Assembly: GCA_965228895.1 (NCBI GenBank)
Contig: OZ245842.1
Location: forward strand, 288,001 to 352,000
Origin: Alphaproteobacteria bacterium
GTDB taxonomy: Bacteria > Pseudomonadota > Alphaproteobacteria > SP197
Reading direction: 5' to 3'
DNA: 64,000 nucleotides
Part shown: piece after piece, positions 1-59,549 of the stretch
How positions within the stretch are numbered: position 1 is the stretch's first letter
Layout of the letters: each line of letters begins with the position of its first letter
Made by a program: the position numbers and the translations under genes
Notes under the pieces: generated by a model
Told to the model about the DNA's origin: nothing
Database searches by the model: none
Seen by the model: the letters and a program-made list of their open reading frames with translations, nothing else

Positions 1-319
1 CCAGGCTGCCTTCGAAGGTCAGGTTCAATCGGCTCAGGATGCCGACGCCCAGCGAGTGGCGAGCCAGCGGGTTCTTGATCACGATCGAACCATAGCCTTC
101 CGCCATCAGCGTCCGGATCTTCAGGTTGATCTCGGAGATTTCCATCTCGGCTGCGTCGACTTCGGCGCGTTTGTTGAAGTCGACATCCGGCGCCTCGGGA
201 TAGAGCAGGTTGTCGGACTCTTCGAGATCGAAGAACCGCTGCTGCGTGCGTCCGGTCAGCTGCTCGGTATGCAGCCCCATTTCATGGCTGACATGATCGT
301 CTGTTTCTAGCTTCGCCAT
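1..319 (-). CDS. GXGXG-motif glutamate synthase alpha C-terminal-like subunit (GlxC/MgsB-like), runs off the window start
   Basis: Not in the ORF track. Manual translation from ATG at 319 gives MAKLETDDHV...EINLKIRTLMAEGYGSIVIKNPLARHSLGVGILSRLNLTFEGSL. It overlaps the stop of the upstream amidotransferase. Confidence 0.75.
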   Translation of the reverse strand, partial: MAKLETDDHVSHEMGLHTEQLTGRTQQRFFDLEESDNLLYPEAPDVDFNKRAEVDAAEMEISEINLKIRTLMAEGYGSIVIKNPLARHSLGVGILSRLNLTFEGSL

Positions 320-33891: not shown

Positions 33892-33968
33892 GGGCCTGTA
33901 GTTCAATTGGTTAGAACCCACCGCTCATAACGGTGTTGTTGCAGGTTCGAGTCCTGCCGGGCCCACCA
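33892..33968 (+). tRNA. tRNA with CAT anticodon, most likely tRNA-Ile2 (lysidine)
   Basis: GGGCCTG/CGGGCCC acceptor stem, CACCG-CTCATAA-CGGTG anticodon arm, GGTTCGAGTCC T-arm, encoded CCA; lacks initiator features; lies downstream of dnaG-rpoD. Confidence 0.9.
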
Positions 33969-34270
33969 ACTAGTCTGCCGGTTTCGGGTATCGTCCCCGA
34001 TCACACCGCAGAACCGCACAGTTCTGGGGGTTTCCGGGGCAGATGAGGCTCAGGATGTTGTCCGGAGACGCCTATCGGTCGCGAAACAGCCGCGAAGTGG
34101 GCAATAGTCTCTGTTCGCCATTTTAGACGATCACACTTCCAAATCGGTGTCTGGTCCAACGCGATCCATCGATCGGCAGTTGCCTCGATTCTGCCGAGGG
34201 CATGCTTGCAGGTGTAACCTGAATCGTAGTTGGGCTGTGGGGGATACTATCGGAGCCGAAGCTATCGTTA

Positions 34271-35980: not shown

Positions 35981-36423
35981 AGTCCGAAGAACCTCGGGCC
36001 GGACCAACGGGTTCCGGTGATCTCTCTCGCAATCGCTGATAACGAGCGATAGCGTCGACCGTCCCAAACAAACCCATCGTCGACGACATCGACGCTAAAG
36101 ACTTGGCCGTTCCATTCTCTGACCAGGCGCATCCCCGGCTTGGTCACAGGTGGTTGGGCACTCACTTGATTCGAGCGACGTGAACTCTTGCGAGACGGTC
36201 GGAATGACCGGAGGTCTTTCCTTGTCTTGATGCTTAGGCCGCCGAAGGTGTCGACCTGGGCCTGATAGGCGGCCGCCCGCTCGAGAAGCAAGGTGCTAAT
36301 GCCCTTGGGCGGGCGGCGTTTGTGGATCGCTGTCCACCTCTCAACAAGCGATTTCCTGGTTTCATCTGGTGACGGTGCAGCGTCGACACCCTCATGGTCA
36401 GGACTGGAGAGTGTCGATGTCAT
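35977..36423 (-). CDS. DUF2924 family protein
   Basis: AYQAQVDTFGGLS, PGMRLVREWNG, YRSLSAIAREITGTRWSGPRFFGL. Confidence 0.88.
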   Translation of the reverse strand: MTSTLSSPDHEGVDAAPSPDETRKSLVERWTAIHKRRPPKGISTLLLERAAAYQAQVDTFGGLSIKTRKDLRSFRPSRKSSRRSNQVSAQPPVTKPGMRLVREWNGQVFSVDVVDDGFVWDGRRYRSLSAIAREITGTRWSGPRFFGL

Positions 36424-38335: not shown

Positions 38336-38771
38336 CCCCATCGCTCTTGCCCCCCTCGCAATCGGCATCGCCGGTGTTCGAACTAGCTTTTTGGTGCTGT
38401 TTTACCCTCCGCATGATGTCGGCTTCCAGTGTCTCGAGAACCGCTTGCTCGTCGTCCGTCAATGGCTGGTCCGCATTCCCGCTATCGTCGAGATCGAGCA
38501 AGCGCTGCATCATGTTGTAGATCAACAGCATTGCCCGAGTGTCACCCTTGATGCTGCGGGCCATCAGGCTCTTCACCATGGCGCGTTGTTTGGTGATCTT
38601 TCTTTGCGATGAGCCCTCCTTTATGAGCACGCGTTCTTCGAGCTCTTCAACTAGATCGGTCTTGAGGTTCTTGGTGCCCTTGGGCCGCCCTTTCGAGTTG
38701 CCAGATTGGCCCTTCTTGAATTGCGCATGCTTAGGTGGGCGCTTGAATCCAACTTCGTAGTCATCGACCAT
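38328..38771 (-). CDS. DUF5681 protein (possible small terminase-like subunit)
   Basis: YEVGFKRPPKHAQFKKGQSGNSKGRPKG. Confidence 0.85.
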   Translation of the reverse strand: MVDDYEVGFKRPPKHAQFKKGQSGNSKGRPKGTKNLKTDLVEELEERVLIKEGSSQRKITKQRAMVKSLMARSIKGDTRAMLLIYNMMQRLLDLDDSGNADQPLTDDEQAVLETLEADIMRRVKQHQKASSNTGDADCEGGKSDGDD

Positions 38772-40161
38772 GGGTCGCCCTCCCTTTTGGCTCAGGGATT
38801 ACTGACGGGTCCGACTTGTTAGATCCGGCTCGGCTAGTCAGGACATTCTCGAAGGACTGGCCGCTGTGCTTATGCACGGCGACGGCACCAAATGCGTCTT
38901 GATAGCGGAGGATGCTGCTGTCCACGTAGTACGGATCTAGCTCCATCGTATAGGCACGACGGCCAGTCGCTTCGGCTGCGATGAGCGTTGTGCCGCTTCC
39001 GGCGAAACAGTCGAGAATGATCCCATTCCTATCGGAGCAGTCGAGCATGGCGTCGACCACCATTTGGACCGGTTTAACGGTCGGGTGGATCGGCAATGTC
39101 TTGGAACGGTCATCGCCAAACGTGTTGGCACCAGGGTAGTCCCACACATTCGTTCGGTTTCGGCCAAAACGCCCAAGCTGAACGTTGTTTACGTGAGGTG
39201 CCGTGCCACTCTTGAAGACAAATACAAGCTCATGCTTGGAACGATAGAGGGATCCCATGCCGCCGTTCGTTTTGTTCCAGATGCAAAGGTTCTGGAAGCT
39301 GTCATAGATGCCCCGCGCTGCGGCCGTGATCTCATAGGTATGGCGCCAGTCCATGCAGACGAAGTGAATCGCACCGTCCTTGGCAAACTTAACGACGTTG
39401 TTGAACGCCGATGACAGAAAGGAGACGAACTCACCTTCCGACATCTCGCCCGAGGCCATGACGAATTCCCCGTGTTTAATGTCTCCGAGACCGCTGACGT
39501 TGCCGGCAATCGGAACGTTGTAGGGCGGGTCGATGAAGACCATCTGTGCCTCCTCGCCATTCATCAGTTCGGCAAATGAGTTTGGCTTCGTGGCATCACC
39601 ACACATGAGCCGATGACGTCCAAGAAGCCAGACATCGCCCGGTTGACTTATCGGCGCGGCCGAACGATCGACGTCAGGGATGTTGTCGAGGGCTGGGTCA
39701 GTGTTGTCGTCCACACTGCCGATGTAGAGATCGAGCTCCGGCGTCTCAAACCCCGTAACGGTCAGATCGAGTTCGGTTTCAAACTGGACCAAGTCCCGCA
39801 GTTCCAGGGCAAGGATTTCAACATTCCAGCCGGCATTGTCAGCGATTTTGTTGTCGGCAAGACGAAGCGCTCGTTTCTGAGCGTCTGTTAAACCGCTGAT
39901 TCTAATAATCGGTACAGTCGGCATGCCGAGCGACTTGGCGGCTTCGATCCGACCATGACCGGCGATAATCGCAAGCTTCTCGTCCGTTAGGACGGGATTT
40001 GTGAAACCAAACTCTCGGATGCTCTTTTCGATCTGCTCAAGCTGCTTCTGAGAGTGTGCCCTGGCATTGTTCAAATAGGGCGTCAGCGATGCAGTTGATA
40101 CAAACTCCACATGTAAATCTCGAAGGCGGTCTACCGTGCATTTAGCGAAGGTGCTTTTCAT
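38761..40161 (-). CDS. ParB-like domain fused to an N6/N4 DNA methyltransferase (beta class)
   Basis: PYLNNARAH..FGFTNPV..IAGHGR; DPPY (motif IV) precedes HPTVKP..LDCFAGSGTT (motif I). Confidence 0.9.
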   Translation of the reverse strand: MKSTFAKCTVDRLRDLHVEFVSTASLTPYLNNARAHSQKQLEQIEKSIREFGFTNPVLTDEKLAIIAGHGRIEAAKSLGMPTVPIIRISGLTDAQKRALRLADNKIADNAGWNVEILALELRDLVQFETELDLTVTGFETPELDLYIGSVDDNTDPALDNIPDVDRSAAPISQPGDVWLLGRHRLMCGDATKPNSFAELMNGEEAQMVFIDPPYNVPIAGNVSGLGDIKHGEFVMASGEMSEGEFVSFLSSAFNNVVKFAKDGAIHFVCMDWRHTYEITAAARGIYDSFQNLCIWNKTNGGMGSLYRSKHELVFVFKSGTAPHVNNVQLGRFGRNRTNVWDYPGANTFGDDRSKTLPIHPTVKPVQMVVDAMLDCSDRNGIILDCFAGSGTTLIAAEATGRRAYTMELDPYYVDSSILRYQDAFGAVAVHKHSGQSFENVLTSRAGSNKSDPSVIPEPKGRATHGR

Positions 40162-44530: not shown

Positions 44531-46360
44531 ATGCATCTACGTCAACTTGACCTCAGAAATTTCCGCTCGTTCTCGAAAGAAAATGTCTCTTTCGAGCGGG
44601 GACTGACGGTTCTTGTCGGCGAAAACAACGGCGGCAAGAGCAACATTATCGATGCGATCCGACTTGTCTCAACGCCACTCGGCGGCCGGCGGGAACTCTA
44701 CTGCGAACAGACCGACATTCGTTTCGGCGCAACGCCGCGCACTTTTGAACTCTGCGCCACATTCGAAGGGCTCTCACCGCCGCAGCAGGGACGGCTGCTT
44801 TCGGCAACCACAAACGACACCTTGCAAGAAGCTTGCTTTGGCCTGACCTACGATGCGACGGGCCGGCAATCGCATGTCCGGCCCACGCTATGGGCAGGCC
44901 GCTTCAAGGCGATGCCCGAGTCCGGCGCCCATGAGATGATCCGGCATGTTTATCTGCCACCGTTGCGCGACGCCAAGCGCGCGCTCGCCTCCGGCAATCC
45001 CACGCGCATCCATGCATTGCTCAATCATTTTCTCGGTGAGCGCGACCCCGAGGACGTTGCGAAGAGTCTTGCTCGCACAAGCGAGCATCCGATTTTGACC
45101 GACGTTGATACTGCCGTTGCGACAGGTCTGGATATATTGACTGCCGGTGTCCGGCGGCAGGGCGCGGCGCTCGGGTTCAGCGCGGATGAAAAGCTTATAG
45201 ACATCGCTCGCGACCTGCGGTTCAAGCTCGCCGATCATGGGATTACCCCGGAAGACCTTCAGTATTCCGGACACGGATTTGCGAACCTCCTGTATATCGC
45301 GACCATCGCCGTCGAGCTTGAAAGAACCGACAACGCCGAACTGACATTGTTCCTCGTTGAAGAACCGGAGGCCCATCTTCATCCCCAGCTTCAGGCCGCC
45401 GTCCTGAACTTCCTGGAAGAGCGGGCGGAACAGTCGCTCATAGCCAAGGCCGACAAAGACGCGCCGGCCGGCCATCTACAGGTAATCGTGGCTACGCATT
45501 CGCCCAATCTGTCGGCATGGGTGCCCAGCAAGAGCCTTGTATTTGTCCGATCCGTCGCGCCAGCGGCAAAGGACGGCGAAGCGGCGAACGAGCCTGAACC
45601 GGGCGAGGCGTTAGAAGCCGCTGATCCGCAAGCGGAAGGGAAGCTACCCCCGCGTCCCGAGTCACGGTGTATTCCTCTTGCTAAACTTGACCTGACCGAC
45701 CCCGACCGCAGAAAGATCGATCGCTATCTCGACGTCACCAAATCAGCCCTGCTGTTTAGCGGCCGGGTGCTGCTGGTCGAGGGCATTGCCGAAGCGCTAT
45801 TGTTGCCGGTCATCGCCAAGCATTATGTCCTCAAGGACCGCCCCGCGGAATTACGCATATTCCGTTCGGCTGTTTTTGTGCCCATCGACGGTGTTGATTT
45901 TGCGCCGTACGCCAAAGCCCTGCTGTCCCCGTTTGACGGTGTGCGGATCGCGGACCGTCTTGTCATCGTCACGGACGGCGACAAACACACCAAAGATGAC
46001 GGAGAAACCGCCACCGGCGACAACCGGAAGACCGATCTTGATGAGCTGGCGGCTGAGAAGGGCGCGGCCGATGTTCTCGACGTATTCGTGAATACCTACT
46101 CGCTGGAAACCGAGCTGGTTGCCGCGGGGAATGCAGCGGATATGAAAGAGGTGTATTTGCACCTACATCCGCGGTCCGGGGCGAAGTGGGACGAGGCTAT
46201 CGCCAAGGAAGGCGATGACCGCGCCAAAGCCATACAAGAGCTTTTCAAGAACACGCCAAAGGGAGACTTTGCACAGCTTCTGGCGGAAAAGGTCGCCGCC
46301 AGCGACTCGTTCAACGTTCCCGTCTACATCCGGGATGCCATCGAAGCGCTGGTCAAATGA
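44531..46360 (+). CDS. gajA: OLD-family ABC ATPase-TOPRIM nuclease (Gabija GajA-like)
   Basis: GENNGGKSN Walker A, LVEEPEAHLHPQ, ATHSP, LLVEGIAE and TDGD TOPRIM motifs. Confidence 0.85.
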   Translation: MHLRQLDLRNFRSFSKENVSFERGLTVLVGENNGGKSNIIDAIRLVSTPLGGRRELYCEQTDIRFGATPRTFELCATFEGLSPPQQGRLLSATTNDTLQEACFGLTYDATGRQSHVRPTLWAGRFKAMPESGAHEMIRHVYLPPLRDAKRALASGNPTRIHALLNHFLGERDPEDVAKSLARTSEHPILTDVDTAVATGLDILTAGVRRQGAALGFSADEKLIDIARDLRFKLADHGITPEDLQYSGHGFANLLYIATIAVELERTDNAELTLFLVEEPEAHLHPQLQAAVLNFLEERAEQSLIAKADKDAPAGHLQVIVATHSPNLSAWVPSKSLVFVRSVAPAAKDGEAANEPEPGEALEAADPQAEGKLPPRPESRCIPLAKLDLTDPDRRKIDRYLDVTKSALLFSGRVLLVEGIAEALLLPVIAKHYVLKDRPAELRIFRSAVFVPIDGVDFAPYAKALLSPFDGVRIADRLVIVTDGDKHTKDDGETATGDNRKTDLDELAAEKGAADVLDVFVNTYSLETELVAAGNAADMKEVYLHLHPRSGAKWDEAIAKEGDDRAKAIQELFKNTPKGDFAQLLAEKVAASDSFNVPVYIRDAIEALVK

Positions 46361-48105
46361 CCCAGCAACCCTTCAAGCCCACTGATCAGCAACGCGTGGT
46401 CATAGGTCATGACGGCTCGGCCTTCGTAGCGGCCTGTCCGGGAGCCGGGAAAACACGCGTTATGACCGAACGCGCCCGCCGACTGTTCCAGGGAATACCG
46501 GCGGGACGCGGCGTGGCTTTCCTGTCTTTCACGCAGGCCGCCGTTTTTGAACTCGACACCCGCCTTAGGCAAGAAGGGCTGCTGTCCACGCCGGTCTTTC
46601 CATACTTCATAGGCACCTTTGACAGCTTCGTCTGGCAGTTTCTTATTGCGCCGTTTGGAGTCAAGGATTGCGAGGCGCGCCCCCGCCTGATCGCCGACAC
46701 GGCGCATCTTCTGGTCGAGCCGTTTGATGGCGCTCATGCTTTGCCCCTTTCTTGTTTTTGTCCGCAGACAGGCGCGATTTTCGAGCGCGCAGCCAAGCGC
46801 AAGCGTTTTGACGTATCTCAAAAAACGGAGGCTCAAATTCAGAGATACGTAACCGCTGCCAACCGGCTCCGGGCGGGACTACGACAACGAGGTCATTTGG
46901 GTTTTGACGAAGCGCGCGCGGTTGCGCTCGAACGCCTCAATGACAAGGCGCTTGCTGACCGGATCGTTGCCGCGCTCGCGGGGCGCTTTCGCGAGGTAAT
47001 CGTGGATGAGGCGCAGGACTGTAATCCGGATGATCTGACAATTATTTCGTGGCTGCGCAATTTCGGCCTGCCCGTGAAGGTGGTCTGCGATCCCCATCAA
47101 TCCATCTATGAATTCCGCGGAGGCGTCACCGATCACCTTATTGAGTTTGCGGAAACATTTCCCTCCGACCAGCGTAAGGATTTGACAGGCAATTTCCGGT
47201 CTACACCCAATGTCTGCAAAGCCCTCGCCCAGCTGCGGCCGCCGACTGCTCGCGGCGCCCCTGATGATGCTCTGGGACCGCTAAAAGATGAAACTGCGCC
47301 GGTTCAGATTCTGTCATACGCGGGCAATGGTGTTCCCGCTTCGATCGGCACGACATTTTGCGCCCTGCTGCAGGAGGCGGGTATTGACATTTCATCCGCG
47401 CCCATCGTTGCGGCAACCAAGGCCAGCGGCGCTGTCGCCGCCGGGCAGCCCCGACCGACAGGCGGTAACCACCGGACTATCCGTCTCGCAGAAGCAGTGA
47501 CCGACTTTCATTTCGCCGCCGGCTTCAGCGACATGAAGACGGCCATCGAAAGCGTTCACCGGATTCTCCTGGAATTGGAAGGACGCCTTGGCGACCGTTC
47601 TTACCATCAATATCTCACGGACAATGAAATCGAACTGGCTAGCTGGCGTCCAAAAGTTATCTCCTTTCTCAGAGCTCTTAGGTTTGATGCGGCCAAATAT
47701 ACAGATGCAAGAGCGTGGCATGAGGCCGCCAAGGATTTCTTATCAAGCGAACTAACGATTGAAGACGGTAGGTCTATCTCGCAAAAGCTGACTTGGAATG
47801 CCGGCCTGGACGCGGCGCTTGCAGCTGTACCGGCCAAAACAGCAATGCCCCGGACAATCCATTCGGTTAAGGGCATGGAGTACCCGGCTGTCTGTGTGGT
47901 CACGACAGCATCCACGCTCAAGCGCATTCTGGATTTTTTGGAAACGGGCGAGCCGGTCGACAAAGCCGAGGATGCGCGCAAGCTTTATGTGGCCGCTTCA
48001 AGGGCCGAAAGGCTGCTGGTCATCGCGGCACCCAAGAGCCAGGCCGAACGGCTGAAGGCTCATCTTTCCAGCCAAGGTGCGGCCGTTACGATAAATGAGA
48101 TTTGA
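46357..48105 (+). CDS. gajB: UvrD-like helicase (Gabija GajB-like)
   Basis: ACPGAGKT, VDEAQD, DPHQSIYEFRG, NFRS, TIHSVKGMEY, YVAASRA; ATGA overlap with gajA. Confidence 0.85.
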   Translation: MTQQPFKPTDQQRVVIGHDGSAFVAACPGAGKTRVMTERARRLFQGIPAGRGVAFLSFTQAAVFELDTRLRQEGLLSTPVFPYFIGTFDSFVWQFLIAPFGVKDCEARPRLIADTAHLLVEPFDGAHALPLSCFCPQTGAIFERAAKRKRFDVSQKTEAQIQRYVTAANRLRAGLRQRGHLGFDEARAVALERLNDKALADRIVAALAGRFREVIVDEAQDCNPDDLTIISWLRNFGLPVKVVCDPHQSIYEFRGGVTDHLIEFAETFPSDQRKDLTGNFRSTPNVCKALAQLRPPTARGAPDDALGPLKDETAPVQILSYAGNGVPASIGTTFCALLQEAGIDISSAPIVAATKASGAVAAGQPRPTGGNHRTIRLAEAVTDFHFAAGFSDMKTAIESVHRILLELEGRLGDRSYHQYLTDNEIELASWRPKVISFLRALRFDAAKYTDARAWHEAAKDFLSSELTIEDGRSISQKLTWNAGLDAALAAVPAKTAMPRTIHSVKGMEYPAVCVVTTASTLKRILDFLETGEPVDKAEDARKLYVAASRAERLLVIAAPKSQAERLKAHLSSQGAAVTINEI

Positions 48106-49692: not shown

Positions 49693-50034
49693 ATGGCTTC
49701 TGGTGGAGACTTGACGTATTGGGCCAATCTTGCGGCGATAGCCGGTTTTATCGTGACGTTTGTTGGCGCCTGTGTCGGAATTTTTGGGTACTGCAGCTAC
49801 CGGCGAAGCTGGAAAAAGAAGACGGACGCCCTTGTTGGGTACTTAAAGACAAAGAAAGCGCAGGCTGGTCCCGGCAAGAAAGGGCAGCAGACCACTACGC
49901 ATCTGATCCGCTATGTCGGCCTTACCGAGGACGAGATTCTTAAGATCAGTTTTGAGAACAAGCACGTCGAGCGGACGGTCGGCAAGGATGAAGAGGGAAA
50001 GGCGGATACCCTCTTTTTCGAATACAAAGAATAG
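49693..50034 (+). CDS. Small membrane-anchored hypothetical protein
   Basis: One hydrophobic helix (ANLAAIAGFIVTFVGACVGIFGY) followed by a basic domain; preceded by an AT-rich promoter-like region. Confidence 0.6.
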   Translation: MASGGDLTYWANLAAIAGFIVTFVGACVGIFGYCSYRRSWKKKTDALVGYLKTKKAQAGPGKKGQQTTTHLIRYVGLTEDEILKISFENKHVERTVGKDEEGKADTLFFEYKE

Positions 50035-50068
50035 GAAACAAGATGCCCAGCTGAAATCCGAGGATGCG

Positions 50069-51103
50069 ATGGTATTAAGAATAATAGTCGATACGTGCGT
50101 CTGGCTCGACCTGGCCAAAGACTATCGGCAGCAACCGGTCATCGGCGTTCTTGAAGATCTGGTCAAAGCGCGAGAGATCGAATTGCTTGTGCCTGAAACT
50201 GTTCTCGATGAATTCGGGCGTAACAAGGCCCGCGTGATCGAAGAAACGCGCCGCAGTCTTCAATCTCATTTCCGACTGGTACGCGAGGCCGTAAACAGAT
50301 TTGGCGACAATGCTTCCAGGATGGATACGCTCAACGGCCTGAACGAAGTCGATCACAAAATTGCAACCAAGGCGGAAGCGGTCAACGACTCGGTCGACCG
50401 GATTGAAGCACTCCTGAAATCAGTGCCGGCACTGCCGACGAGCGATACTGTCAAACAGCGCGTAACCGAACGGGCTATCGCAAAAAGAGCCCCATATCAT
50501 CGCGACCGCAACAGCGTTGGCGATGCCATCCTCGTTGAAATCTATGCCGAGCAGATATCAGCCGCTTCCGGCGCGCACGCAGAGTTCGCATTTGTGACGC
50601 ACAACACAAAAGACTTCAGTACGGTGAACGGTGATCGACGCAGGCCTCATGACGATCTGGAAAGCCTCTTCGATGCACCCGGATCGACCTATTGGGTTTC
50701 GATCGTTGACCTTATCAAGGCGCGTGATCCTGACCTACTGGCGGATCACGACTCCGAGTTCAACTTCTCTCAACAGTCCCGCACACTCTCCGAAATTCTG
50801 GAGGCGGAGCACCTTCTATTCCGGCAGGTCTGGTACAACCGCCACTGGAATCTTCGGGCCAAGATCGAGGACGGCAAGCACCATGTCGTTCCAGAGAAGG
50901 ATTATTCCCGCAATCCCTACCGTCGGGACCAGACCCTGGACAGCGTATGGGAGCAAGCTCTTGCAGCAGCTAAACGCACCGAAGAAGAGGTCGGCCTTGA
51001 GAATCTCGGGCCATGGGATGAATTCGAGTGGGGAATGATTAACGGCAAGCTGTCCGCTCTGCGCTGGGTACTGGGGGACGATTGGGACATGCTGGATACG
51101 TAA
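50069..51103 (+). CDS. PIN-domain ribonuclease (DUF4935-like) with a C-terminal extension
   Basis: IIVDTCVWLD, VPETVLDEF, KRAPYH..SVGDAIL, FVTHNTKDFS. Confidence 0.8.
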   Translation: MVLRIIVDTCVWLDLAKDYRQQPVIGVLEDLVKAREIELLVPETVLDEFGRNKARVIEETRRSLQSHFRLVREAVNRFGDNASRMDTLNGLNEVDHKIATKAEAVNDSVDRIEALLKSVPALPTSDTVKQRVTERAIAKRAPYHRDRNSVGDAILVEIYAEQISAASGAHAEFAFVTHNTKDFSTVNGDRRRPHDDLESLFDAPGSTYWVSIVDLIKARDPDLLADHDSEFNFSQQSRTLSEILEAEHLLFRQVWYNRHWNLRAKIEDGKHHVVPEKDYSRNPYRRDQTLDSVWEQALAAAKRTEEEVGLENLGPWDEFEWGMINGKLSALRWVLGDDWDMLDT

Positions 51104-51168
51104 CCCATGGCTTCGGGGAATTTCCTTCGCGACGAGGAGGGCAGGAAGGTGCACGATAGCAAAGAGAT

Positions 51169-54100
51169 ATGATGCGCACTGAGGACGAACCCGAACACAG
51201 TACGATTAGAGCCTGGAAGTCTTCACGATCCGGGGCTTGGGCCGGGCGCGGATTTCATTACCAGCACCTGATTTCAACTTTGATTCTATCACGACAGTGG
51301 GCCGGCCTTGCGCCATCCGGTTTTCTCGTGCCCGAGGGACTAGACGACTGCGTTGTCGAGCTTGCAGACCGTGATATCTGGCTTCAGATCAAATCGCGAA
51401 AGGACAGTGCATTCAACAACAGCGAAGTGCAGGCGTTCCTGACCGCTACCCGTGCCAAGGCCGCAGCGGTTGAAGGCGCGAAGGAGAACCATGCTACCGT
51501 TGTTCTTGAGCATCCGCGGACCGGCCGCACTGAGGCGGGCATCGACCAGATGTTCGCGGATGAGAACCTATCGGTATTTGCATGTACGGAGCCGGGAGAG
51601 GAAGCTGTCAAACTGCTTTTGGGGCAGCTCGACATAGCGGAAGTCATCGCTGAAGGTATTGTCAGCGATCTGTACAGACTGGTTGCCGATGCGTCGCAGG
51701 CGAACGCATCTTTACCCTTCGAACAAAGACAGCGGATTTCCACAACAGAGGTAGAACGACGTATCCTTGAACGTTTGGAGGCCGAAGACCCTTCCGCAAT
51801 AGACCGCGCCATGGCGTCCGGCGCTCTGGAACCCGTCGATTTCAAGAGCTCTATCAGCGAGCCAGCCTTCTACCAAGGTGTAAAGGTCAGGCCAGGCCAC
51901 GTCGCTGCCGGGCTTGTGCTGGACCGCCCGGACGATACGGATACGGTTGTCCGTACACTCAGACGGCTACGGCATGTGCTCATATCGGGTCCGTCGGGCG
52001 CCGGAAAATCCGCGCTCATGTGGCTGTGCGCCCGTCTGTTGGCTGGTGAGATCAGGTGGTACCAGATCACCGCACGGGCTGTTCCTGCGGATGCCGATGC
52101 CGTCATTCGCTTTGTACGCGCCCGCCGTCCCACCGAAGATTCCCCGATCGGTTTGGCGTTCGATGATGTTGGTTCTACAAACAGCGACCTTTGGGACGTG
52201 CTCGTCCGTGAACTGAGAGGGATGCCGTCCGTCTATTTTCTTGGCTCGGTGCGCCAGGAAGATGTCACTCTCATCGCCAACCAGTCAGATACCGAGTTCA
52301 TAGCCGTCAGCCTTGATGAAGAGCTGGCCGAAACTGTCTGGCAGAATCTCCACGCCGAGAATCAGACAAACTGGGAACACTGGCGCGAACCCTTCGAGCA
52401 GTCCGAAGGTCTCATGCTCGAATATGTACACCTGCTGAACAAGGGACGACGGCTTGCAGCCGTTATTGACGAACAGGTTCGGCAGCGGCGACAGGAGGAG
52501 CGGCTCGACGAACTTGCGATCATAAGAAGCACCGCCGTGCTATGCGCCCGTGGTGCAGAAGTTCATGCGGGCAAGCTGTTCAAACTACTCAACATTAACC
52601 CCGAGGACGCCAGCCGTGCAATGTCCCGTCTCCTTGACGAGCATCTGGTGAGAGAAAGCCGACCCGGTGTACTGGGCGGCCTGCACATGTTGCGCTCGCA
52701 GGCACTCAGCGAGGCATCACACGATGAGGTTGCCCTCTTAAGTGCGGACTCCCTCTGGCAGGGCCTGCCTGCGACGACAAACGAAACCCTGCCAAGGACA
52801 GTTCAATCGATCCTCGCAGACGCGCGGGACGAAGGCGAGGCAACAGCCTTAGGCAAATTCGCGGAAATGCTTGGAGCCAGCGCCGATGTTGATACATGGG
52901 TGGCCCTCCTGACTGGACTTGGGCTCGCAACCCTGGAACGCCGGGTTGCCTCGTTTATGGAAGTGCTTGAACAGCACGGGGTGCAGCGCGCCCAATGGTC
53001 GCTTGCATCCATGTTCAGCGATCCGGGCATCGACATTCCTGAGCTGTCAGAGTTTGAACAATGGCAAGACCTTCGAGACGCTGTGCTCGCTTTCCGTGCT
53101 TTACCGAAAGACGACCTTCGGCCCGCCTGCCTGGAGCACCTTCCCAAGGAAAGTACCGCCCCGTCCTGCCAGAATTTGCAGCAGGCCAACAAGTTTCTCT
53201 CATGCCTCGCACCGATCGGCGGGGGTGAGCCCGTGCCGCTTACAATCGCGCCAGATTTCGTTGGCGATGCACAGCAGGATATACGGCAAGTCGCAGCCTT
53301 GCTTTCCACGGCTTACCTAATCGGACCGGACCTGGCCCGAGATCTCGTGCAGGCGTTCGGCGGCGAACAGGTCCTGTTTGAGTTGTTCCGGTCTCAAACG
53401 CCGTGGGTATCCACCCCCGTTATTGACCCCAACGGGGCGCATGGACGTACTGTCCGTTCCGACTGGTACTACGTGGCTGAACAGGAACAGTCCGATCCCC
53501 ATGAGTCGGTTTGCAGCATTGGCGAGACCTTGATCGCAATATCACCGGACTCGGATGCTGCGGCATCGGATGCGGTGAATCCGCAGGGCGAGCCTATTAC
53601 AATCGGGGACCTCACGCCCTGGTCCAAGAATATGCCGAGGAAAAACATTCCCAGCAAAACCCGCGTTGCGTGGAACGTGGCCTTCCGGCAAGTCATGCTT
53701 GCCCGATCAGCTTCCGACAGTCTCACCGACTATACCCGGCAAATGGCTGAACTGCTAAGGCGCACCGAAAAGGTCTTTCGGTCGTTCACCGAGAAATGGA
53801 TCAAGGGCAAAAGCATCGGGAATGCCGACGCGCTGGCCGAGGAAGTCAATGAGATTATTCAGGCCGTCAATGCACTCGCCTACGCCACGCCCGAAGAACC
53901 AACATCTGAAATGACAGCGCCTGCGGCTGGTGCAGGGGAGGACGATACACTCGGCGCGCTGCTTACGGGCATACTCGGCAATCTCATGAGAAGAATGAGC
54001 AAGCTTCCCGGAGAAGGAGCCAAGGGCACAGCCACCTTTGCGGGGAGCCTGGCAGCACAGGCGTGCGAACATGAGAAATCGGCCATATGGCGGACAAGTT

Positions 54101-55059
54101 CAGAACCGCCCCTTCGTGAACTCGGCGCTTTGAGAGAACGTCTCGGCGATGTCGCCTGCATATTGCACGAAATGGCGCATGACGATGGGACATCGTCAAT
54201 TCAGGGAATCGTCAAGGCCGCGCGAAAAGGCCACTTAGGTAAGGCAGTCCGTGCGGCTGCTCGGCGTTGCGGTTCGTTGGCCGATCAGCGGTTCGGCCAA
54301 CGGCTGAAGGCTATGGAAACAGCGCTTAGGGATAACGGCTGGAATGCCCGGTGCTGGTCCCGGCCGATTGACGAGGCCGACAGCGTGTACTGGCCCGCGC
54401 GGGAGGTCGCGGTTCTTGTTGAAATCACGGATTTTGAGACGGACGCGGGATACATCGAAGATTCTCTTATGATGGGGCAGGACTATCTTGGAACCGACTG
54501 GCGCTTCAGAGTTTTGCCGGTCCTCAATGGCTATGTTGTGCCGGCTTTGGCCTTGCTTCCTTCATCACATGTACCGTTGCCTGATCAGGACTTCGCGAAG
54601 GACTGGCGGGACCATATTGACCGTCCGTTCTTGTCCCCGGAAATCGTAGACAGATTTGATGAAGCGTTAGCCGCCTGCAACCAGCTATCAGGAATCCTGG
54701 CTTGCCGCAATCCGGACAATCTTCATCCGGATGAAAATGAGGTACTTTCGAAGTCCGCTGAGTCCTTCGAGCGCAATCATGACTTGGTTGCTGAAGCGGC
54801 TGAACGGACCGGATCCGAGTACCTGGCATGGGCATACAACTATCTGAGCGAAACCTGGGATCAGGTTGTTCGTGAGTTTGAGTCTGTAAAAGCCGGCCAT
54901 AACGTTGCCCAGCCGCTTTGTATGAATGCCCATTTGGCACTTGCAGGCGAGACGAACGACCAGCTAGCGGATCTTGCCGCCGCGCGCATCCTTTTGCTGC
55001 AGGCTGAGTGCATGAGCACAGTCGAACACACTGACACTCTGCCGTCAGGAGCATCGTGA
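51169..55059 (+). CDS. Large nuclease-STAND NTPase protein (Cap4/DUF4297-like N-terminal nuclease; Avs-like architecture)
   Basis: GAWAGRGFHYQ..EGLDD..LQIKS nuclease motif; GPSGAGKS Walker A, LAFDDVG Walker B; long, probably helical C-terminus; 1296 aa. Confidence 0.72.
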   Translation: MMRTEDEPEHSTIRAWKSSRSGAWAGRGFHYQHLISTLILSRQWAGLAPSGFLVPEGLDDCVVELADRDIWLQIKSRKDSAFNNSEVQAFLTATRAKAAAVEGAKENHATVVLEHPRTGRTEAGIDQMFADENLSVFACTEPGEEAVKLLLGQLDIAEVIAEGIVSDLYRLVADASQANASLPFEQRQRISTTEVERRILERLEAEDPSAIDRAMASGALEPVDFKSSISEPAFYQGVKVRPGHVAAGLVLDRPDDTDTVVRTLRRLRHVLISGPSGAGKSALMWLCARLLAGEIRWYQITARAVPADADAVIRFVRARRPTEDSPIGLAFDDVGSTNSDLWDVLVRELRGMPSVYFLGSVRQEDVTLIANQSDTEFIAVSLDEELAETVWQNLHAENQTNWEHWREPFEQSEGLMLEYVHLLNKGRRLAAVIDEQVRQRRQEERLDELAIIRSTAVLCARGAEVHAGKLFKLLNINPEDASRAMSRLLDEHLVRESRPGVLGGLHMLRSQALSEASHDEVALLSADSLWQGLPATTNETLPRTVQSILADARDEGEATALGKFAEMLGASADVDTWVALLTGLGLATLERRVASFMEVLEQHGVQRAQWSLASMFSDPGIDIPELSEFEQWQDLRDAVLAFRALPKDDLRPACLEHLPKESTAPSCQNLQQANKFLSCLAPIGGGEPVPLTIAPDFVGDAQQDIRQVAALLSTAYLIGPDLARDLVQAFGGEQVLFELFRSQTPWVSTPVIDPNGAHGRTVRSDWYYVAEQEQSDPHESVCSIGETLIAISPDSDAAASDAVNPQGEPITIGDLTPWSKNMPRKNIPSKTRVAWNVAFRQVMLARSASDSLTDYTRQMAELLRRTEKVFRSFTEKWIKGKSIGNADALAEEVNEIIQAVNALAYATPEEPTSEMTAPAAGAGEDDTLGALLTGILGNLMRRMSKLPGEGAKGTATFAGSLAAQACEHEKSAIWRTSSEPPLRELGALRERLGDVACILHEMAHDDGTSSIQGIVKAARKGHLGKAVRAAARRCGSLADQRFGQRLKAMETALRDNGWNARCWSRPIDEADSVYWPAREVAVLVEITDFETDAGYIEDSLMMGQDYLGTDWRFRVLPVLNGYVVPALALLPSSHVPLPDQDFAKDWRDHIDRPFLSPEIVDRFDEALAACNQLSGILACRNPDNLHPDENEVLSKSAESFERNHDLVAEAAERTGSEYLAWAYNYLSETWDQVVREFESVKAGHNVAQPLCMNAHLALAGETNDQLADLAAARILLLQAECMSTVEHTDTLPSGAS

Positions 55060-55306
55060 CCAATGACGTGTTCACCGTCTCCAGAAGAAACTGTTGTCGC
55101 CCATATGACGGGTCCTGTACCGGAACGCCGTGACGACATGCGGGCTTTATGGGAATGGTATGACCTGGAAGTGATCGTCGTTCAGGATGCGAAACACATC
55201 ACGTGGAATGCAACCAAAGGGGACACCAATCACGGCGCAGCCTATGCACGCCCGTCCACTCAGGAAGTATCCGGTGGCCGAACTCTGGTACACTCTCTTG
55301 GCGGCC

Positions 55307-56131
55307 TTAGGTCGGACTTCCTGTGATCATATCTGAGGCCGGTATGCGCAGCGACCAATCGTGCCTGCGCTCTGCACGAAAGCGGCGCCTTTTGGCACAT
55401 GCGCCATCGGGCCGGATTTCACAGTCCAGATCGTCTAGGGATGGCTTGGACATGTTGAAATTTACATTGAGCGAGTCGTAACCCAGATCATCTATGTAAG
55501 TCTTGTATCTAAAGCCGGCATAGACAGCGGCGGCGATCAACGCGCCGTTGGATACATAGCGTGGGCCCAGCCTGCCGCCCTCCGGGTAGTTGCAGCTGTA
55601 GTTTTCCGCGATATGCTTTAGCCGGTCGCTGCCGGTGCCAGGTCTTATTGTCTTCGTCGGCTCAACGCGCCCGACAAAAGCGAGTGAGAGCAGGAACTGC
55701 TCAATTCCGTCATTGCCGAGAAATTCCTTGCGGCTTTGAAGCACGCGGCCATAGTGCTCCTGTGCGGTCTCCCAGTTGCCGTCATCTTTGCGTTTGCGCC
55801 GGCCGACACCGATACCGTGTAGGGTCAACCTCCTATCAGTAGCAAGTAGGGCTCGTACTAGAAATCGGGCGACCGCCAGATAGAAGGGCTTCGGTTCGAC
55901 CTGAAAATCGTGTGCCGCGAGATATGCGCCGAAAGCAGCACCGTCTGCCGTCGCCATAACGGGCGAGGGCGCGCGGGCGGCTGCTAGGAGTGAGGCGTAA
56001 GTCTGAAAACCGAGGCCGCGGCCAAGGGCTTCACAGCGATGCGAAGACTTCACGCCGCACAGTGCTTTGCCCAGATCGGTCTTGAGTTCAGCAATGTTCG
56101 ATGACGTTACAGGAAATGTAAGAGTAAACAC
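55307..56131 (-). CDS. Hypothetical protein with an N-terminal 'glyoxalase-superfamily (Glyoxalase_8)-like' helical motif
   Basis: RBS GGAGG, GTG 56131; LKTDLGKALCGVKSSHRCEALGRGLGFQTYASL; later GSDRLKHIAE..YVSNGALIAAA. Confidence 0.65.
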   Translation of the reverse strand: MFTLTFPVTSSNIAELKTDLGKALCGVKSSHRCEALGRGLGFQTYASLLAAARAPSPVMATADGAAFGAYLAAHDFQVEPKPFYLAVARFLVRALLATDRRLTLHGIGVGRRKRKDDGNWETAQEHYGRVLQSRKEFLGNDGIEQFLLSLAFVGRVEPTKTIRPGTGSDRLKHIAENYSCNYPEGGRLGPRYVSNGALIAAAVYAGFRYKTYIDDLGYDSLNVNFNMSKPSLDDLDCEIRPDGACAKRRRFRAERRHDWSLRIPASDMITGSPT

Positions 56132-56275
56132 AGATGCATCCTCCAGTCTTGGGGGCAGTGCCGTTCGCCGATTACGCAGCAGCCCGCTGGTGTGATGCGG
56201 TCTGTTACACGAGATACAATTTGACTGCAGGACGTTTGACTCGGCGACAAGTCGATGGTGTCCAAACCGAGCCCA

Positions 56276-56304
56276 AAAATAGTCGCCACAGCCTTTTTGG
56301 TCAA
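56276..56304 (-). promoter_or_regulatory. Sigma70-like promoter TTGACC-17-TATTTT
   Basis: Canonical spacing; mirrors the promoter at 57350-57378. Confidence 0.55.
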
Positions 56305-56508
56305 GGTCGAACGTTCTAAGCATTTGACCACAATCCGTTTTTGACCTTTCTGCTGAGTGCGTCCGCCCGCCTGCGCTTCGGGCTCCGGCGAGACGAACCG
56401 GGCTCTCGTGAACCGAGCCCGCAAGGTGCGGTCTCGGCCATGCCATCGCTCAAAGTGACGCGACAGGCCAGAGCGGCGCTAAGCCTGTCGCGCCTGCGAG
56501 CTACGATG

Positions 56509-57204
56509 TTAGGCAGCTTTCCAGAACGGCTCAGCGAAAATGTCGATCGGCGTCGCGCTGCATTTTGGGCAGTGCCACATGTTCGTGGCCATCTGCGCAC
56601 CTGTGGAGACAGCATCACAGTGTAAACAGTGCCACTCACTCGACAGCCCTCGCTCACCAAATAGCGGATGAAGTGTCCGCCCTTTTCCATCTGGTTTTGT
56701 CGAGCGCCGCGGCCAGTCAGTCGCGATGCGGGCCCGCAGTTCTTCTGCGCCGATGTTTGCGATCGTCAGAGCTTTCGATACGAACGCCGGGTCCAGGATA
56801 GGGTTGTCCATGGAATCGTCGTACATCTCGATCACCGGCTCTTCGGACGGTGCCTGTTCCACGCAAATGGCCCATCCTTGCCCGTACATAAGCACCTCGA
56901 AATCGATCTCTATTGTGTAATCGTGAGCATCGATACTGCCGTGTTCCTTGGTCGTGAAGCCCAGTCCAATAGGGGGGCGAGAGTGCGTGTCGACATTCCC
57001 TGCATTTGAGGCATTAGCGAGAGCATCCACCTTCGCAGGGTCAGGCCGCCAGCCGGTTTCCCATGCGATGGTCAATGCCTTCCAATGCTGAAATTCGAAG
57101 GCGTTCGCAACCGCATCAAGAGCCTTGTGGTGGGCAATGCGTTGCCGGCGTGCGAGCCGCTTGGCGATGATCTTTAGAGAGTTCAGGTTGTTGTAGTTGG
57201 TCAT
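56509..57204 (-). CDS. Hypothetical protein with the same N-terminal helical motif and a C-terminal zinc ribbon
   Basis: LKIIAKRLARRQRIAHHKALDAVANAFEFQHWKAL; CLHC..CPKC. Confidence 0.75.
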   Translation of the reverse strand: MTNYNNLNSLKIIAKRLARRQRIAHHKALDAVANAFEFQHWKALTIAWETGWRPDPAKVDALANASNAGNVDTHSRPPIGLGFTTKEHGSIDAHDYTIEIDFEVLMYGQGWAICVEQAPSEEPVIEMYDDSMDNPILDPAFVSKALTIANIGAEELRARIATDWPRRSTKPDGKGRTLHPLFGERGLSSEWHCLHCDAVSTGAQMATNMWHCPKCSATPIDIFAEPFWKAA

Positions 57205-57349
57205 GGTCCATTCCTACGATCTCGGACCTGACTAGGTGCCCACTGCCAATCAAGTCCGCCCAAAGGGAACGGTCATGAAAGAGCTTTAGAGAAAGCACTG
57301 CATAGCTTCGCGCAGGTGGGCAAACCGGCCTGTGCTTAAGGCCATGGAA

Positions 57350-57378
57350 AAAATAGGAAAGATCCGTCGCTTAGTCAA
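57350..57378 (-). promoter_or_regulatory. Sigma70-like promoter TTGACT-17-TATTTT
   Basis: Canonical spacing; about 140-nt leader before ATG 57204. Confidence 0.55.
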
Positions 57379-57569
57379 GATACGGGACATTAGCCAACCG
57401 TGTTTACGCACTCAAATGGGCCGCATTTTCCATAATGCAGATTATGGCGCTCGAGAATGTAGGTGCAGAGTTAACAGGTCAGTCCCGAGTAAAATACAGA
57501 TGTCAGTTTTCAACCCTTTTGATGGGGTCTCAGGGATGATGCTAGCGACGGAATTGATGCTGATGAGTG

Positions 57570-58215
57570 GACGAGAAATAGGCCTTCATCGCAAGGCTGT
57601 CGTTCGATGGCGCTGGAAGGTTTCAGTCCCTACTGATGTTGGAGGTTTCGTCGGCGCGGTGCGCTGCCAAGACATCTGGTGAGATTGGATCTCTCATTCG
57701 ATGGATGAGAGAGCGGGGTCGCCTGTGGGATATGTCGCGTATTCACGGAGAGAAGCCGAGGCTCGCTTTTGGCGTCAGCCAAGCAATAGTCTTGTGCAAC
57801 GTGCAGAAGCGACCCTCCGATACCGATCAGATGTCGAGGACTCTCTACCGAATCTAGACGGTTTGGACGATCGCCATCGACTTGCCGGTCATGCTGGCGT
57901 CGACGTTTCGCATTGTCAGAGTCCGCCGACCCTGTGTTTCGAACAGCAAAATCTGGTGCACCTTGACGTGACAGCCAACCCAATGGCCGAGTGGGCGGTA
58001 CATCAAGTGACCAAAGTGTCTCCATGCGATGCTGTACCCGGTCTCCTCGTCTGTGACCGAGATCAGAAATCCAACGGCATCCAGATTGTGCCGATAGAAT
58101 CTCAATCACCGTGAAAAACGAGACCGTGGAACGCGTGATGGTTTCGCTCCGTCAAGAGCGTCTGGTTCACGTCACGTCATCGTCTAAAATGAACCGCACC
58201 TACAGCACGTTTTCA
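57570..58215 (+). pseudogene. Heavily degraded rve-type integrase/transposase remnant
   Basis: Fragments across frames: IGSLIRWMRE..LWDMSRIHGE, LVHLDVTANPMAEWAVHQV..DRDQK, SP*KNETVERVMVSLRQE. Confidence 0.65.
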
Positions 58216-58421
58216 AGGTCACCCCAACCCACCTCTACAGGTCCCGACCACTTCTGTCGCTGTACAGAAACTCTCCAGCCTCCTTAGGGACGTCGACGAG
58301 CTCGCAGGGCTGCATCGCTGCCCTTCCTGGTGTTGGGGCACAGCATCATCAATAAAAGAGGATGGCGGCGTGGTAGTCAGCACCTTCCGAGGGAATTGGC
58401 GTGTTGGAAAGAGGCTATGGT

Positions 58422-59549
58422 CTAGCATTTAGAGGGCTGCTCAGAATCCTCCAAAAAGTCGAGCGCGAGGCATGACTCGGCGCTCCAGCCAACGGAACAT
58501 GTCATGCCTGGATTAAGCGTCAGGCCGCTTGTCGCAGGCACCATGGTCACGAAGTCATCCCTGCCGCAGAGTGACAATACAACGCGAGTGTGCAGGCCAA
58601 CATAGACCAGCTCCAGAACACGCGCGTGGAACACATTTGCCAAGGAATCTGCGGCGGGATTCCACACAACTTGCTCAGGTCGAACCGATAGCGTAGTCCG
58701 GTCTCCTACTGCATCAACCGCCACCGGCGTGGCTCGAATAATGGAGCCGTCGCTTACTTCGACGCCGCAAACACCTCCACCCATGGAGGCCACGTGGCCA
58801 TCAATGGAGTTGTTGTCACCCACAAATCGAGCGACGAACGTGGTGTCCGGTCGATCATAAATGGTCTTGGGCGCGGCAACTTGCTGCACAGCTCCTCCAT
58901 TGAACACGGCGATCCGGTCGGACATGGTCAGTGCTTCGGCCTGATCGTGGGTTACGTAGACCAAGGTTAGGTTGAGGTCATGATGCAGTTGGCGAATTTC
59001 CAACTGCATCTGTTCACGCAACTGCTTGTCGAGTGCGCCGAGCGGTTCGTCCATTAACACCAAGTCCGGTTCAAACACCAAAGCCCGCGCCAGCGCAACC
59101 CGTTGCTGCTGGCCACCTGACAGGGCACTAGGCTTTCGATGTTCATACCCGCTCAATCTAACCATAGCGGTCGCTCGGGCGACCCTGTCGTCGATCTCGG
59201 CTCGCCCCACGCCACGCACGCGCAACGGGAATCCAACATTACCAGCGACTGTCATGTTCGGAAACAACGCGTAGTTCTGGAACACTACACCAATGTTTCG
59301 GTCCTGCGGCAGTAGATGTGTAATAGGCCGTCCGCGCAACAGGATCTCGCCGACGGTCGGTTCCTCAAATCCGGCAAGCATCATCAGCGTTGTCGTTTTC
59401 CCTGAACCGGATGGGCCCAACAACGTCAGGAACTCCCCTTTCCGGACCTCAAGATCGAGGTCCCGAACGGCCATGACTCCACCTCCATAACTTTTGGAGA
59501 TGTTGCGATAACAGACCAGGTTTTCTGATGCGTTTGCCTCAGCGAACAT
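58422..59549 (-). CDS. Polyamine-type ABC transporter ATP-binding protein (PotA-like)
   Basis: GPSGSGKTT, FQNYALFP, LSGGQQQR, LMDEPL, TOBE-like C-terminus. Confidence 0.92.
   Translation of the reverse strand: MFAEANASENLVCYRNISKSYGGGVMAVRDLDLEVRKGEFLTLLGPSGSGKTTTLMMLAGFEEPTVGEILLRGRPITHLLPQDRNIGVVFQNYALFPNMTVAGNVGFPLRVRGVGRAEIDDRVARATAMVRLSGYEHRKPSALSGGQQQRVALARALVFEPDLVLMDEPLGALDKQLREQMQLEIRQLHHDLNLTLVYVTHDQAEALTMSDRIAVFNGGAVQQVAAPKTIYDRPDTTFVARFVGDNNSIDGHVASMGGGVCGVEVSDGSIIRATPVAVDAVGDRTTLSVRPEQVVWNPAADSLANVFHARVLELVYVGLHTRVVLSLCGRDDFVTMVPATSGLTLNPGMTCSVGWSAESCLALDFLEDSEQPSKC

Follow-up and report, generated by a model that had tools for sequence, protein, structure and literature searches.

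Two pseudoknotted leader RNA classes at the end of an alphaproteobacterial genomic island, and a third class elsewhere, appear coupled to a widespread N-terminal protein domain

Introduction

At the far end of a genomic island in an alphaproteobacterium of the SP197 lineage (GenBank assembly GCA_965228895.1, contig OZ245842.1, forward-strand positions 288,001 to 352,000), two minus-strand genes for hypothetical proteins stand in tandem, each behind a promoter and a leader of about 140 nucleotides (nt). Coordinates below refer to this stretch of 64,000 nt, which is called the window. An earlier reading made from the letters alone, hereafter the sequence-only reading, had taken the two leaders for pseudoknot-like RNAs of a common architecture and the tandem pair for a candidate RNA-protein system, in which a shared N-terminal domain would bind its own leader or the RNA would act as an antitoxin-like or sensor partner of variable effectors. 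The locus raises the question of what these leaders are, and of what they travel with in other genomes. The two units consist of the following features:

57350-57378, minus strand: promoter of unit 2, sigma-70-like, TTGACT-17-TATTTT
57205-57343, minus strand: leader 2 RNA, about 139 nt (covariance model R1 match 57196-57364, 132.9 bits, E 9e-38)
56509-57204, minus strand: gene 2, 231 amino acids (aa), ATG at 57204; PF20066-type N-terminal helical domain (about residues 5-50), middle domain and C-terminal CxxC...CxxC zinc ribbon
56276-56304, minus strand: promoter of unit 1, sigma-70-like, TTGACC-17-TATTTT
56132-56269, minus strand: leader 1 RNA, about 138 nt (covariance model R2 match 56126-56279, 122.8 bits, E 2.3e-32)
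55307-56131, minus strand: gene 1, 274 aa, GTG start at 56131; N-terminal three-helix segment, then an alpha/beta domain of unknown family

The promoters noted earlier before both genes (cTTGAC-17-TATTTT) are present, and they are the only promoter-like sites on either strand of 54800-58200 (shuffles: mean 1.7, standard deviation 1.6). The leaders, put at about 140 nt, measure about 139 and 138 nt up to the start codons (ATG at 57204, GTG at 56131), both of which are backed by alignments of the protein families.

Results

Conservation of the two leaders

Seen in the window alone, the leaders stay within chance. Folded by themselves they yield z-scores of -0.71 and -1.55, no better than shuffles, and among 2000 mononucleotide shuffles 33% and 32% contain at least one perfect 7-mer complement, so that the case rests wholly on relatives. 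Database searches at E <=0.001 return 158 and 255 proteins for the two families, which are both large groups of hypothetical proteins, and the analysis draws on 80 external loci of family 2 from species genomes and 80 of family 1 from metagenome contigs. Upstream of these genes the DNA aligns over its full length, also at protein identities of only 32-60%, the leaders being more conserved than the proteins. The promoter is kept as well: TTGACN-16..18-NANNNT is present in 60/77 family-2 upstream regions (1.25% of shuffles), with a median distance of 140 nt from the end of its -10 element to the start codon, and a relaxed TTG(A/C)NN-16..18-NANNNT in 46/65 regions of family 1 (5% of shuffles), where the median distance is 137 nt.

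Owing to the pseudoknots, RNAalifold run on a MAFFT alignment recovered the structure in part only, and the remainder was built by hand and tested by pair counts. Over both leaders 88-92% of the cells are paired, compared with 27-45% in controls with slid partners, and none of 500 shuffles matches the covariation score. The covariation that had been proposed as a check on homologue leaders is strong and includes the 3′ hairpin and pseudoknot pairings, and it can be said with high confidence that these are real, conserved, structured cis-leaders.

Structure of leader 2

The pair counts for leader 2 come from 62 sequences in the MAFFT alignment A3. Here 89.7% of the cells are paired, compared with 31-42% after a shift of the 3′ partners by 1-3 columns, and the covariation score is 0.310, compared with 0.056-0.080 in the slid controls; 0/500 shuffles attain the observed value. 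The leader contains the following elements:

57339-57343 with 57327-57331, minus strand: 5′ hairpin P1, GGCCU/AGGCC, 95.1% paired
57332-57337 with 57293-57298, minus strand: pseudoknot PK1, P1 loop AAGCAC with GUGCUU
57316-57323 with 57236-57243, minus strand: pseudoknot PK2, 5′ strand UUGCCCAC with P5 hairpin loop GUGGGCAC
57246-57256 with 57225-57235, minus strand: hairpin P5, whose 10-nt loop makes PK2, 93.5% paired
57224-57232 with 57200-57209 (span 57200-57232), minus strand: alternative hairpin P6, with the Shine-Dalgarno sequence (SD) in its loop and the AUG paired, 90.1% paired

The four core pairs of PK1 are altered on both sides in 15, 12, 23 and 9 sequences, with at most two sequences unpaired. 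PK2 contains the 7-nt complementarity UGCCCAC/GUGGGCA that had been read from the single sequence (57316-57322 with 57237-57243); in relatives 99.8% of its cells are paired, G-C being replaced by A-U at one pair in 16 sequences and C-G by U-A at another in three. In P5, half of the ten pairs are changed on both sides, and the hairpin is rich in G-U pairs, which makes the fold specific to the transcript strand. P6 and P5 are mutually exclusive because P6 uses nucleotides of the 3′ strand of P5. One pair of P6 occurs as G-C in 43 sequences, U-A in ten and A-U in two, and taken alone P6 is stabler than P5 in 38 of the 62 sequences, with medians of -7.3 and -3.3 kcal/mol, respectively. A further hairpin, P4, is variable and lies between the other elements; it was considered by eye as an anti-SD element and dropped, its register varying between clades.

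Model R1 finds leader 2 directly upstream of the gene in 77/80 family-2 loci, and the three misses (L016, L038 and L049) have no upstream DNA, leaving 77/77; it also finds the leader in two plasmid loci outside its training set. The copy in the window has the features that define the class, P1, two pseudoknots and P5 directly upstream of a family-2 gene. It also has an upstream AUG which is not kept in relatives. At one locus (L074:2910-3073) the leader lies about 930 nt upstream of a family-2 match that begins at query residue 32, and there may be an insertion between leader and gene.

Structure of leader 1

Leader 1 was assessed on two alignments, A5 with 50 sequences aligned by MAFFT and A7 with 73 sequences (64 distinct) aligned to the model. 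On A7, 92.1% of the cells are paired, compared with 27-43% in slid controls, and the covariation score is 0.345 compared with 0.045-0.094; on A5, which is unbiased by the model, the paired fraction is 88.5% compared with 29-45%. Three elements make up the fold:

56230-56263, minus strand: 5′ domain, P1a (GGAC/GUCC) around hairpin P1b (GACU/AGUC) with loop UCGCCG at 56242-56247; P1a 95.6% and P1b 99.2% paired, both covarying
56153-56185, minus strand: 3′ hairpin P3b, whose loop CGGCGA at 56165-56170 kisses the P1b loop at 56242-56247
56136-56198, minus strand: basal helix P3a under P3b, GCAUC/GAUGC (56194-56198 with 56136-56140) and CCAG/CUGG (56187-56190 with 56143-56146), its 3′ strand being the SD GGAGGA

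The kissing helix is the pairing first seen in the single sequence (UCGCCGA/UCGGCGA, 56241-56247 with 56165-56171). It is paired in 100% of the cells over the 64 distinct sequences, though it is not part of the aligning model, and C-G is replaced by U-A at two positions, in three and two sequences, with G-U variants as well. The two parts of P3a are 87.4% and 73.9% paired, and eight of their nine pairs are changed on both sides. Model R2 recovers leader 1 in 73/80 family-1 loci, or 73/76 once four misses without upstream DNA are set aside, and its presence holds down to 32% protein identity; at the remaining three loci (L138, L147 and L153) the upstream DNA is present and the leader is absent. 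The leader in the window shows both marks of its class, the UCGCCG/CGGCGA kissing loops and the SD in the basal helix.

Relation between the two leaders

The proposal that the two leaders are unlike in sequence but alike in architecture holds in most respects. Their covariance models do not cross-match, R1 finding nothing in the 80 family-1 loci and R2 nothing in the 80 family-2 loci, and a pairwise alignment has 56 identical columns out of 156. The 3′ hairpin placed just before the ribosome-binding site (RBS) is conserved in both, as is the pairing of its loop with the 5′ domain. The part of the architecture that fails is the 5′ helix CGGTTTG/GACCG. Its paired fraction in leader 2, 47.9%, is no different from that of shuffles and slid controls, and in leader 1 it is 62.0% compared with 62.1% in shuffles; relatives have CGGUGUG or GGGYUGG in place of CGGTTTG, and GACCG lies in variable sequence. 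With it falls the spacing of exactly 10 nt between that helix and the 3′ hairpin, since the spacing was defined from the unsupported helix, although the distance itself was not measured separately in relatives.

Each leader is single-copy in its source genome. A search of 54000-59000 against Rfam 15 at E up to 10 returns only ar7 (E 0.32, on the hairpin between the units) and GlsR13 (E 8), with no match on either leader, in line with the earlier view that they belong to no named riboswitch family.

The N-terminal domain

The two proteins had been thought to share an N-terminal helical motif. By profile comparison, a PF20066-type N-terminal domain is established in gene 2. Its first ~50 residues match profile positions 6-54 of PF20066 (Glyoxalase_8) at E 0.041, and although the whole protein scores 14.4 bits, under the cut-off of 23.7, with the VOC part of the profile absent, 31 of 35 family-2 members match the N-part (best E 9.2e-6), and hhalign relates a profile of the PF20066-type N-terminus to family 2 with a probability of 97.8% (E 1.1e-12). 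For gene 1 the same domain is plausible: the hhalign comparison of family 1 with the PF20066-N profile is borderline (probability 46.5%, E 2e-4) and falls in the register that the sequence-only reading had proposed. AlphaFold2 (AF2) models, with confidence (pLDDT, predicted local distance difference test) of 77.4 for gene 2 and 93.1 for gene 1, place three helices at both N-termini, spaced alike in the two proteins (H10-23, H29-39 and H45-52 in one protein, H7-21, H25-35 and H41-49 in the other).

Among 1.84 billion representative proteins the N-domain is matched by 3705 at E <=0.001 and by 948 at E <=1e-10. Within the best 150 matches it is nearly always N-terminal, and Clp_N is among its partners; in NCBIfam the only match is to the N-domain part of PRK05973. 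Judged from these profile matches, the N-part of PF20066 is an independent module that precedes many different C-termini. One protein of the representative library (P0241, 462 aa) contains four N-domain stretches and two ClpX zinc fingers, and looks like a tandem duplication or fusion of units.

A third leader upstream of the same domain

PF20066 was surveyed in 301 genomes of the class, of which 27 contained matches, 18 of these matches being full-length, eight of the N-part only and two of the VOC part only. Upstream of almost all matches that include the N-part lies a third conserved leader. Leader 3 repeats the architecture of the other two and consists of a 5′ domain with the strand GCUCGC, a variable hairpin and a 3′ hairpin whose loop GCGAGC pairs with GCUCGC. 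Over 22 sequences 92.1% of its cells are paired, compared with 32-42% in slid controls; the pseudoknot is 100% paired, with four of its six pairs changed on both sides. A scan of column pairs in leader 3 for a partner of the SD found none, and the leaders of 14 loci have no match in Rfam at E up to 1.

Model R3, built on leader 3, matches 23 of the 24 loci with an N-part match at E <=1e-9, of which 22 were rows of its own training set and one (L168) was not, the miss being L185; it has no match at the two loci with the VOC part only (L186 and L187), nor at L193 and L194. Across 151 genomes R3 gives 14 matches in 13 genomes, each followed within 120 nt by a PF20066 N-part match. Searched in the opposite direction, with the N-domain-only profile A8, a phylum sample of 401 genomes gives 83 places in 61 genomes, in open reading frames (ORFs) of 106-542 aa, and among the best 29 external loci of this sample leader 3 stands directly upstream in 27 and leader 2 in one, a long family-2 gene; the last, L225, has no adjacent leader. 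The domain of L185 lies within a 598-aa open frame, and L194 encodes a DnaB_C/KaiC-like protein of the PRK05973 type.

Behind leader 3 the C-termini are Glyoxalase_8, Glyoxalase_7, Lon-N, Lon-N with Clp_N, a ClpX zinc finger, or nothing recognisable, and the genes have no conserved neighbour (4/57 loci at best). The suggested coupling of the RNA to an N-terminal domain with variable C-termini is thus strongly backed, in a way that was not foreseen, by a third leader class and at least five C-terminal architectures behind the PF20066 N-part. Judged from the compared loci, what the leader accompanies is the N-terminal domain, independently of the remainder of the protein, and the three RNA classes correspond to three clades of that domain.

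Distribution of the two gene families

The two units in the window are independent neighbours, not one system as had been supposed. None of the 160 external loci carries both genes, which makes the tandem arrangement local, and neither gene has a conserved neighbour, the next commonest flanking ORF family of family 2 being present in only 7/80 loci. Whole-protein comparison of the families by hhalign gives no similarity (probability 0.25%), and in the other 32 genomes of the same order neither gene is found. Family 2 occurs on 40 plasmid records, 25 of them conjugative, six mobilizable and nine non-mobilizable, and family 1 on seven; in two annotated plasmid examples family 2 lies amid toxin-antitoxin, abortive-infection and partition genes.

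Family 2 has a short form, as here, of 210-269 aa (28/76 loci) and a long form of 370-389 aa (47/76), the remaining locus being truncated. The long form (L017-L079 and others) has an additional C-terminal part of about 150 aa that has no Pfam match. For the AF2 models of both gene products, Foldseek finds nothing in the PDB at E <=0.001 (top rows at template modelling scores of 0.12-0.20), and the ESM Atlas gives an unnamed cluster only.

Setting of the units in the island

The island begins at a tRNA-Met (33892-33968), where the guanine-cytosine (GC) content falls from 0.62 to about 0.56, and the two units lie at its far end. The earlier assumption of a defence island agrees with its content, a Gabija-like pair, a PIN protein and a STAND NTPase being found within it; the PADLOC models have no match for gene 1 or gene 2. 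The surrounding features are as follows:

33892-36067: tRNA-Met, then a 598-aa serine recombinase and the drop in GC; likely the integration site and left end of the island
36884-40161, minus strand: terminase large-subunit-like ORF (494 aa) and fusion of ParB_N with an N6/N4 DNA methylase (466 aa), phage- or satellite-like remnants within the island
44531-48105, plus strand: OLD-family ATPase with a TOPRIM domain (609 aa), overlapping the start of a UvrD-type helicase (582 aa), which we take to be the gene pair typical of Gabija defence
49913-55059, plus strand: PIN_12 protein (396 aa), then a 1296-aa STAND NTPase (weak nSTAND5 match), convergent with gene 1
about 56455-56490, minus strand: strong GC hairpin 3′ of gene 2 and between the two units, read from the sequence as a likely terminator
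57630-58109, minus strand: 159-aa ORF with no Pfam match, between unit 2 and ABC-transporter genes; may mark the right end of the island

The N-terminus of the STAND NTPase is weakly similar to the LmuA/Cap4-type nuclease (PADLOC E 0.0046). The weak Rfam match to the alphaproteobacterial small RNA ar7 (56422-56548, minus strand) reaches 21.8 bits where the gathering score is 60; its centre coincides with the GC hairpin 3′ of gene 2, and it probably reflects no more than a terminator.

Discussion

The two pseudoknotted leader RNA classes found here and the third found elsewhere are new, strongly covarying and coupled to a widespread N-terminal domain, in the case of leader 1 plausibly so. The leaders track that domain, start at a strong promoter and end in the SD and AUG, which lie partly within covarying helices. 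Most simply, each may be read as an operator of translation that acts in cis and is recognised by the N-domain. Each gene is a self-contained unit in which a sigma-70-type promoter close to consensus precedes a leader of about 140 nt and the coding sequence. The leader is predicted to take a compact fold in which a hairpin loop just 5′ of the RBS pairs with the 5′ domain, as a kissing loop in leader 1, and in leader 2 as an H-type pseudoknot joined by a second pseudoknot from the 5′ hairpin loop. This fold would govern the access of the ribosome: in leader 1 the SD is one strand of the covarying basal helix, and in leader 2 the 3′ strand of the pseudoknot hairpin can instead pair with the start codon, the two helices being mutually exclusive. 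The leaders form at least three sequence classes, each preceding genes that start with the same three-helix PF20066-N domain (plausibly so in family 1) whatever is fused behind it. The N-domain would bind the folded leader of its own messenger RNA and set its translation rate, as ribosomal proteins do on theirs. The absence of a conserved neighbour gene able to supply another partner, both for family 2 and for the leader-3 genes, is consistent with such a model. For the whole chain, translational control in cis together with autogenous control by the N-domain, a probability of about 0.45 appears appropriate.

A broader proposal, which is somewhat more tentative still, would see here a widespread modular RNA-protein unit. 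The N-domain of about 55 residues and three helices would be an RNA-binding domain not recognised as such before, reading the pseudoknot of its own leader, RNA and domain would have co-diversified into at least three classes, and leader and N-domain together could serve as a portable translational autoregulator for grafted effectors. The range of fusion partners across at least 3705 clusters is the background to this proposal: VOC, the substrate-recognition domains of ClpX, ClpA/B/C and Lon, KaiC/DnaB-like ATPases and other modules.

Several observations weigh against autogenous control by a shared domain. First, the domain is less secure in family 1 than in family 2: none of 29 family-1 members matches PF20066 directly, and the N-termini of the two families are related by hhalign with a probability of 3% only, which stands beside the borderline value for family 1 and the PF20066-N profile. 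The shared motif of the sequence-only reading is in this sense a real domain in gene 2 and a borderline one in gene 1. A sequence search of the PDB found no solved relative of the N-domain, and the resemblance of gene 1 to PWI, NAB2-N and HRDC in VIA-align (Z <=5.7) is within noise for helical bundles and no more than a lead. Next, the leader and the coding region of the N-domain are contiguous and span about 330 nt in total, so that their co-inheritance could reflect linkage and not interaction. The leaders also differ in how they handle the SD: the compact fold seems to free the AUG in leader 2 and hides the SD in leader 1, and the SD of leader 3 is found a few nt 3′ of its basal helix. Finally, L185 and L225 carry the N-domain with no adjacent leader, and L193 and L194 carry it with no leader recognised by R3; R1, R2 and R3 recognise no adjacent leader at any of these four, which may have further leader classes or none.

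The invariant unpaired nucleotides of these pseudoknotted folds, set beside the RBS, are also what would be expected of riboswitches or physical sensors, in which the SD and AUG would open or close as the pseudoknot equilibrium responds to a small ligand, an ion or temperature, the N-domain being linked merely as the functional core of the regulated proteins. Leader 2 in particular has two mutually exclusive helices that both covary, and P5, G-U-rich and marginally stable (median -3.3 kcal/mol), would suit a thermosensor. Such a sensor would nevertheless have to exist as three unrelated sequence classes, each tied to one domain clade and not to a metabolic pathway; there is no transporter or biosynthetic gene among the regulated genes, and Rfam yields no riboswitch match. 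This explanation is accordingly considered unlikely, and recognition by the N-domain is preferred to it.

The nearly invariant loops could alternatively be targets of a factor encoded elsewhere, either an antisense or small RNA or an RNA-binding protein of the host or of the element, in the manner of the Inc RNA that acts on the IncI repZ pseudoknot. Pseudoknots near an RBS are a known target of antisense control in IncI and IncB plasmids, and the frequency of family 2 on plasmids (25 of the 40 records being conjugative) would fit such a factor. However, the units occur singly, in widely differing genomes and contexts, with no conserved neighbouring gene or RNA (7/80 and 4/57 loci at best), and a conserved promoter on the opposite strand was not seen, although no systematic search for one was made. 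A factor acting in trans is therefore rather improbable.

It is more improbable again that the RNA serves the protein as a stoichiometric partner, like a type III antitoxin or a scaffold, and not as a translational operator. A pseudoknotted RNA is indeed encoded directly upstream of the accompanying protein, the island is one of defence genes, and on plasmids family 2 keeps company with toxin-antitoxin and abortive-infection genes. The antitoxin-like role raised by the sequence-only reading nevertheless finds no counterpart in the locus: there are no tandem repeats in 55000-57600 and no terminator between RNA and gene, and no endoribonuclease domain was found with Pfam, PADLOC or NCBIfam. The RNA moreover overlaps the SD and AUG and therefore fits control in cis. 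A role of the conserved element at the DNA level, for example as a recombination site or single-strand origin, or as the coding sequence of a leader peptide, is very improbable. Many relatives are on conjugative plasmids, but the abundance of G-U pairs ties the fold to the sense strand, the element is bounded by a conserved double-strand promoter at its 5′ edge and by the SD and start codon at its other end, and the upstream AUG of leader 2 is not conserved.

An operator recognised by the N-domain would be unusual in that the leaders are tied to a protein domain and not to a pathway, the downstream products being alike only in their first ~55 residues. If the domain does bind the leader, a new small RNA-binding fold would be defined, a portable autoregulatory cassette would become a possible part for synthetic biology, and thousands of proteins now labelled hypothetical would become approachable, among them decoy-like copies of the domains with which AAA+ proteases recognise their substrates. 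Even without binding, two or three new and strongly covarying pseudoknotted RNA families would stand, fit for experiment and deposition.

Comparison with known systems

Structured cis-regulatory leaders are a known kind of element, and the three motif classes described here are absent from Rfam. A literature search, which did not extend to motif lists in supplementary files, brought up no account of either the leaders or the PF20066 N-domain. On the protein side the nearest named family is PF20066 itself, of which gene 2 has profile positions 6-54 and lacks the VOC/glyoxalase part.

Type III toxin-antitoxin systems such as ToxIN are alike in having a pseudoknotted RNA upstream of a protein and in their defence contexts. 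The units described here differ in lacking the tandem repeats, the intervening terminator and the endoribonuclease, and the RNA is the mRNA leader itself. A likeness in mechanism is offered by the repZ/repA leaders of IncI-alpha and IncB plasmids, in which the translation of a mobile-element gene is set by the pairing of a hairpin loop with a distant segment close to its RBS. There an antisense RNA from the same locus blocks the pseudoknot, which otherwise activates translation, whereas neither an antisense gene nor a leader peptide is evident at the present units. The SAM-II, preQ1-II and fluoride riboswitches likewise act in cis over about 50-150 nt, show covariation and involve SD-adjacent sequence in a pseudoknot; unlike them, the leaders here have no Rfam match and no known ligand, and are associated with a protein domain and not a pathway.

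There is also a likeness to the autogenous leaders of ribosomal proteins. In rpsO a pseudoknot leader is bound by the protein encoded downstream of it, S15. Such leaders are structured, often pseudoknotted and placed beside the RBS, and unrelated RNAs serve homologous proteins across lineages, as in the distinct S15-binding RNAs from different phyla that a published account includes (PMC4137082). In the present units, where binding is only proposed, the corresponding partner would be not an rRNA-binding ribosomal protein but an N-domain of about 55 residues, carried by accessory proteins with interchangeable C-termini.

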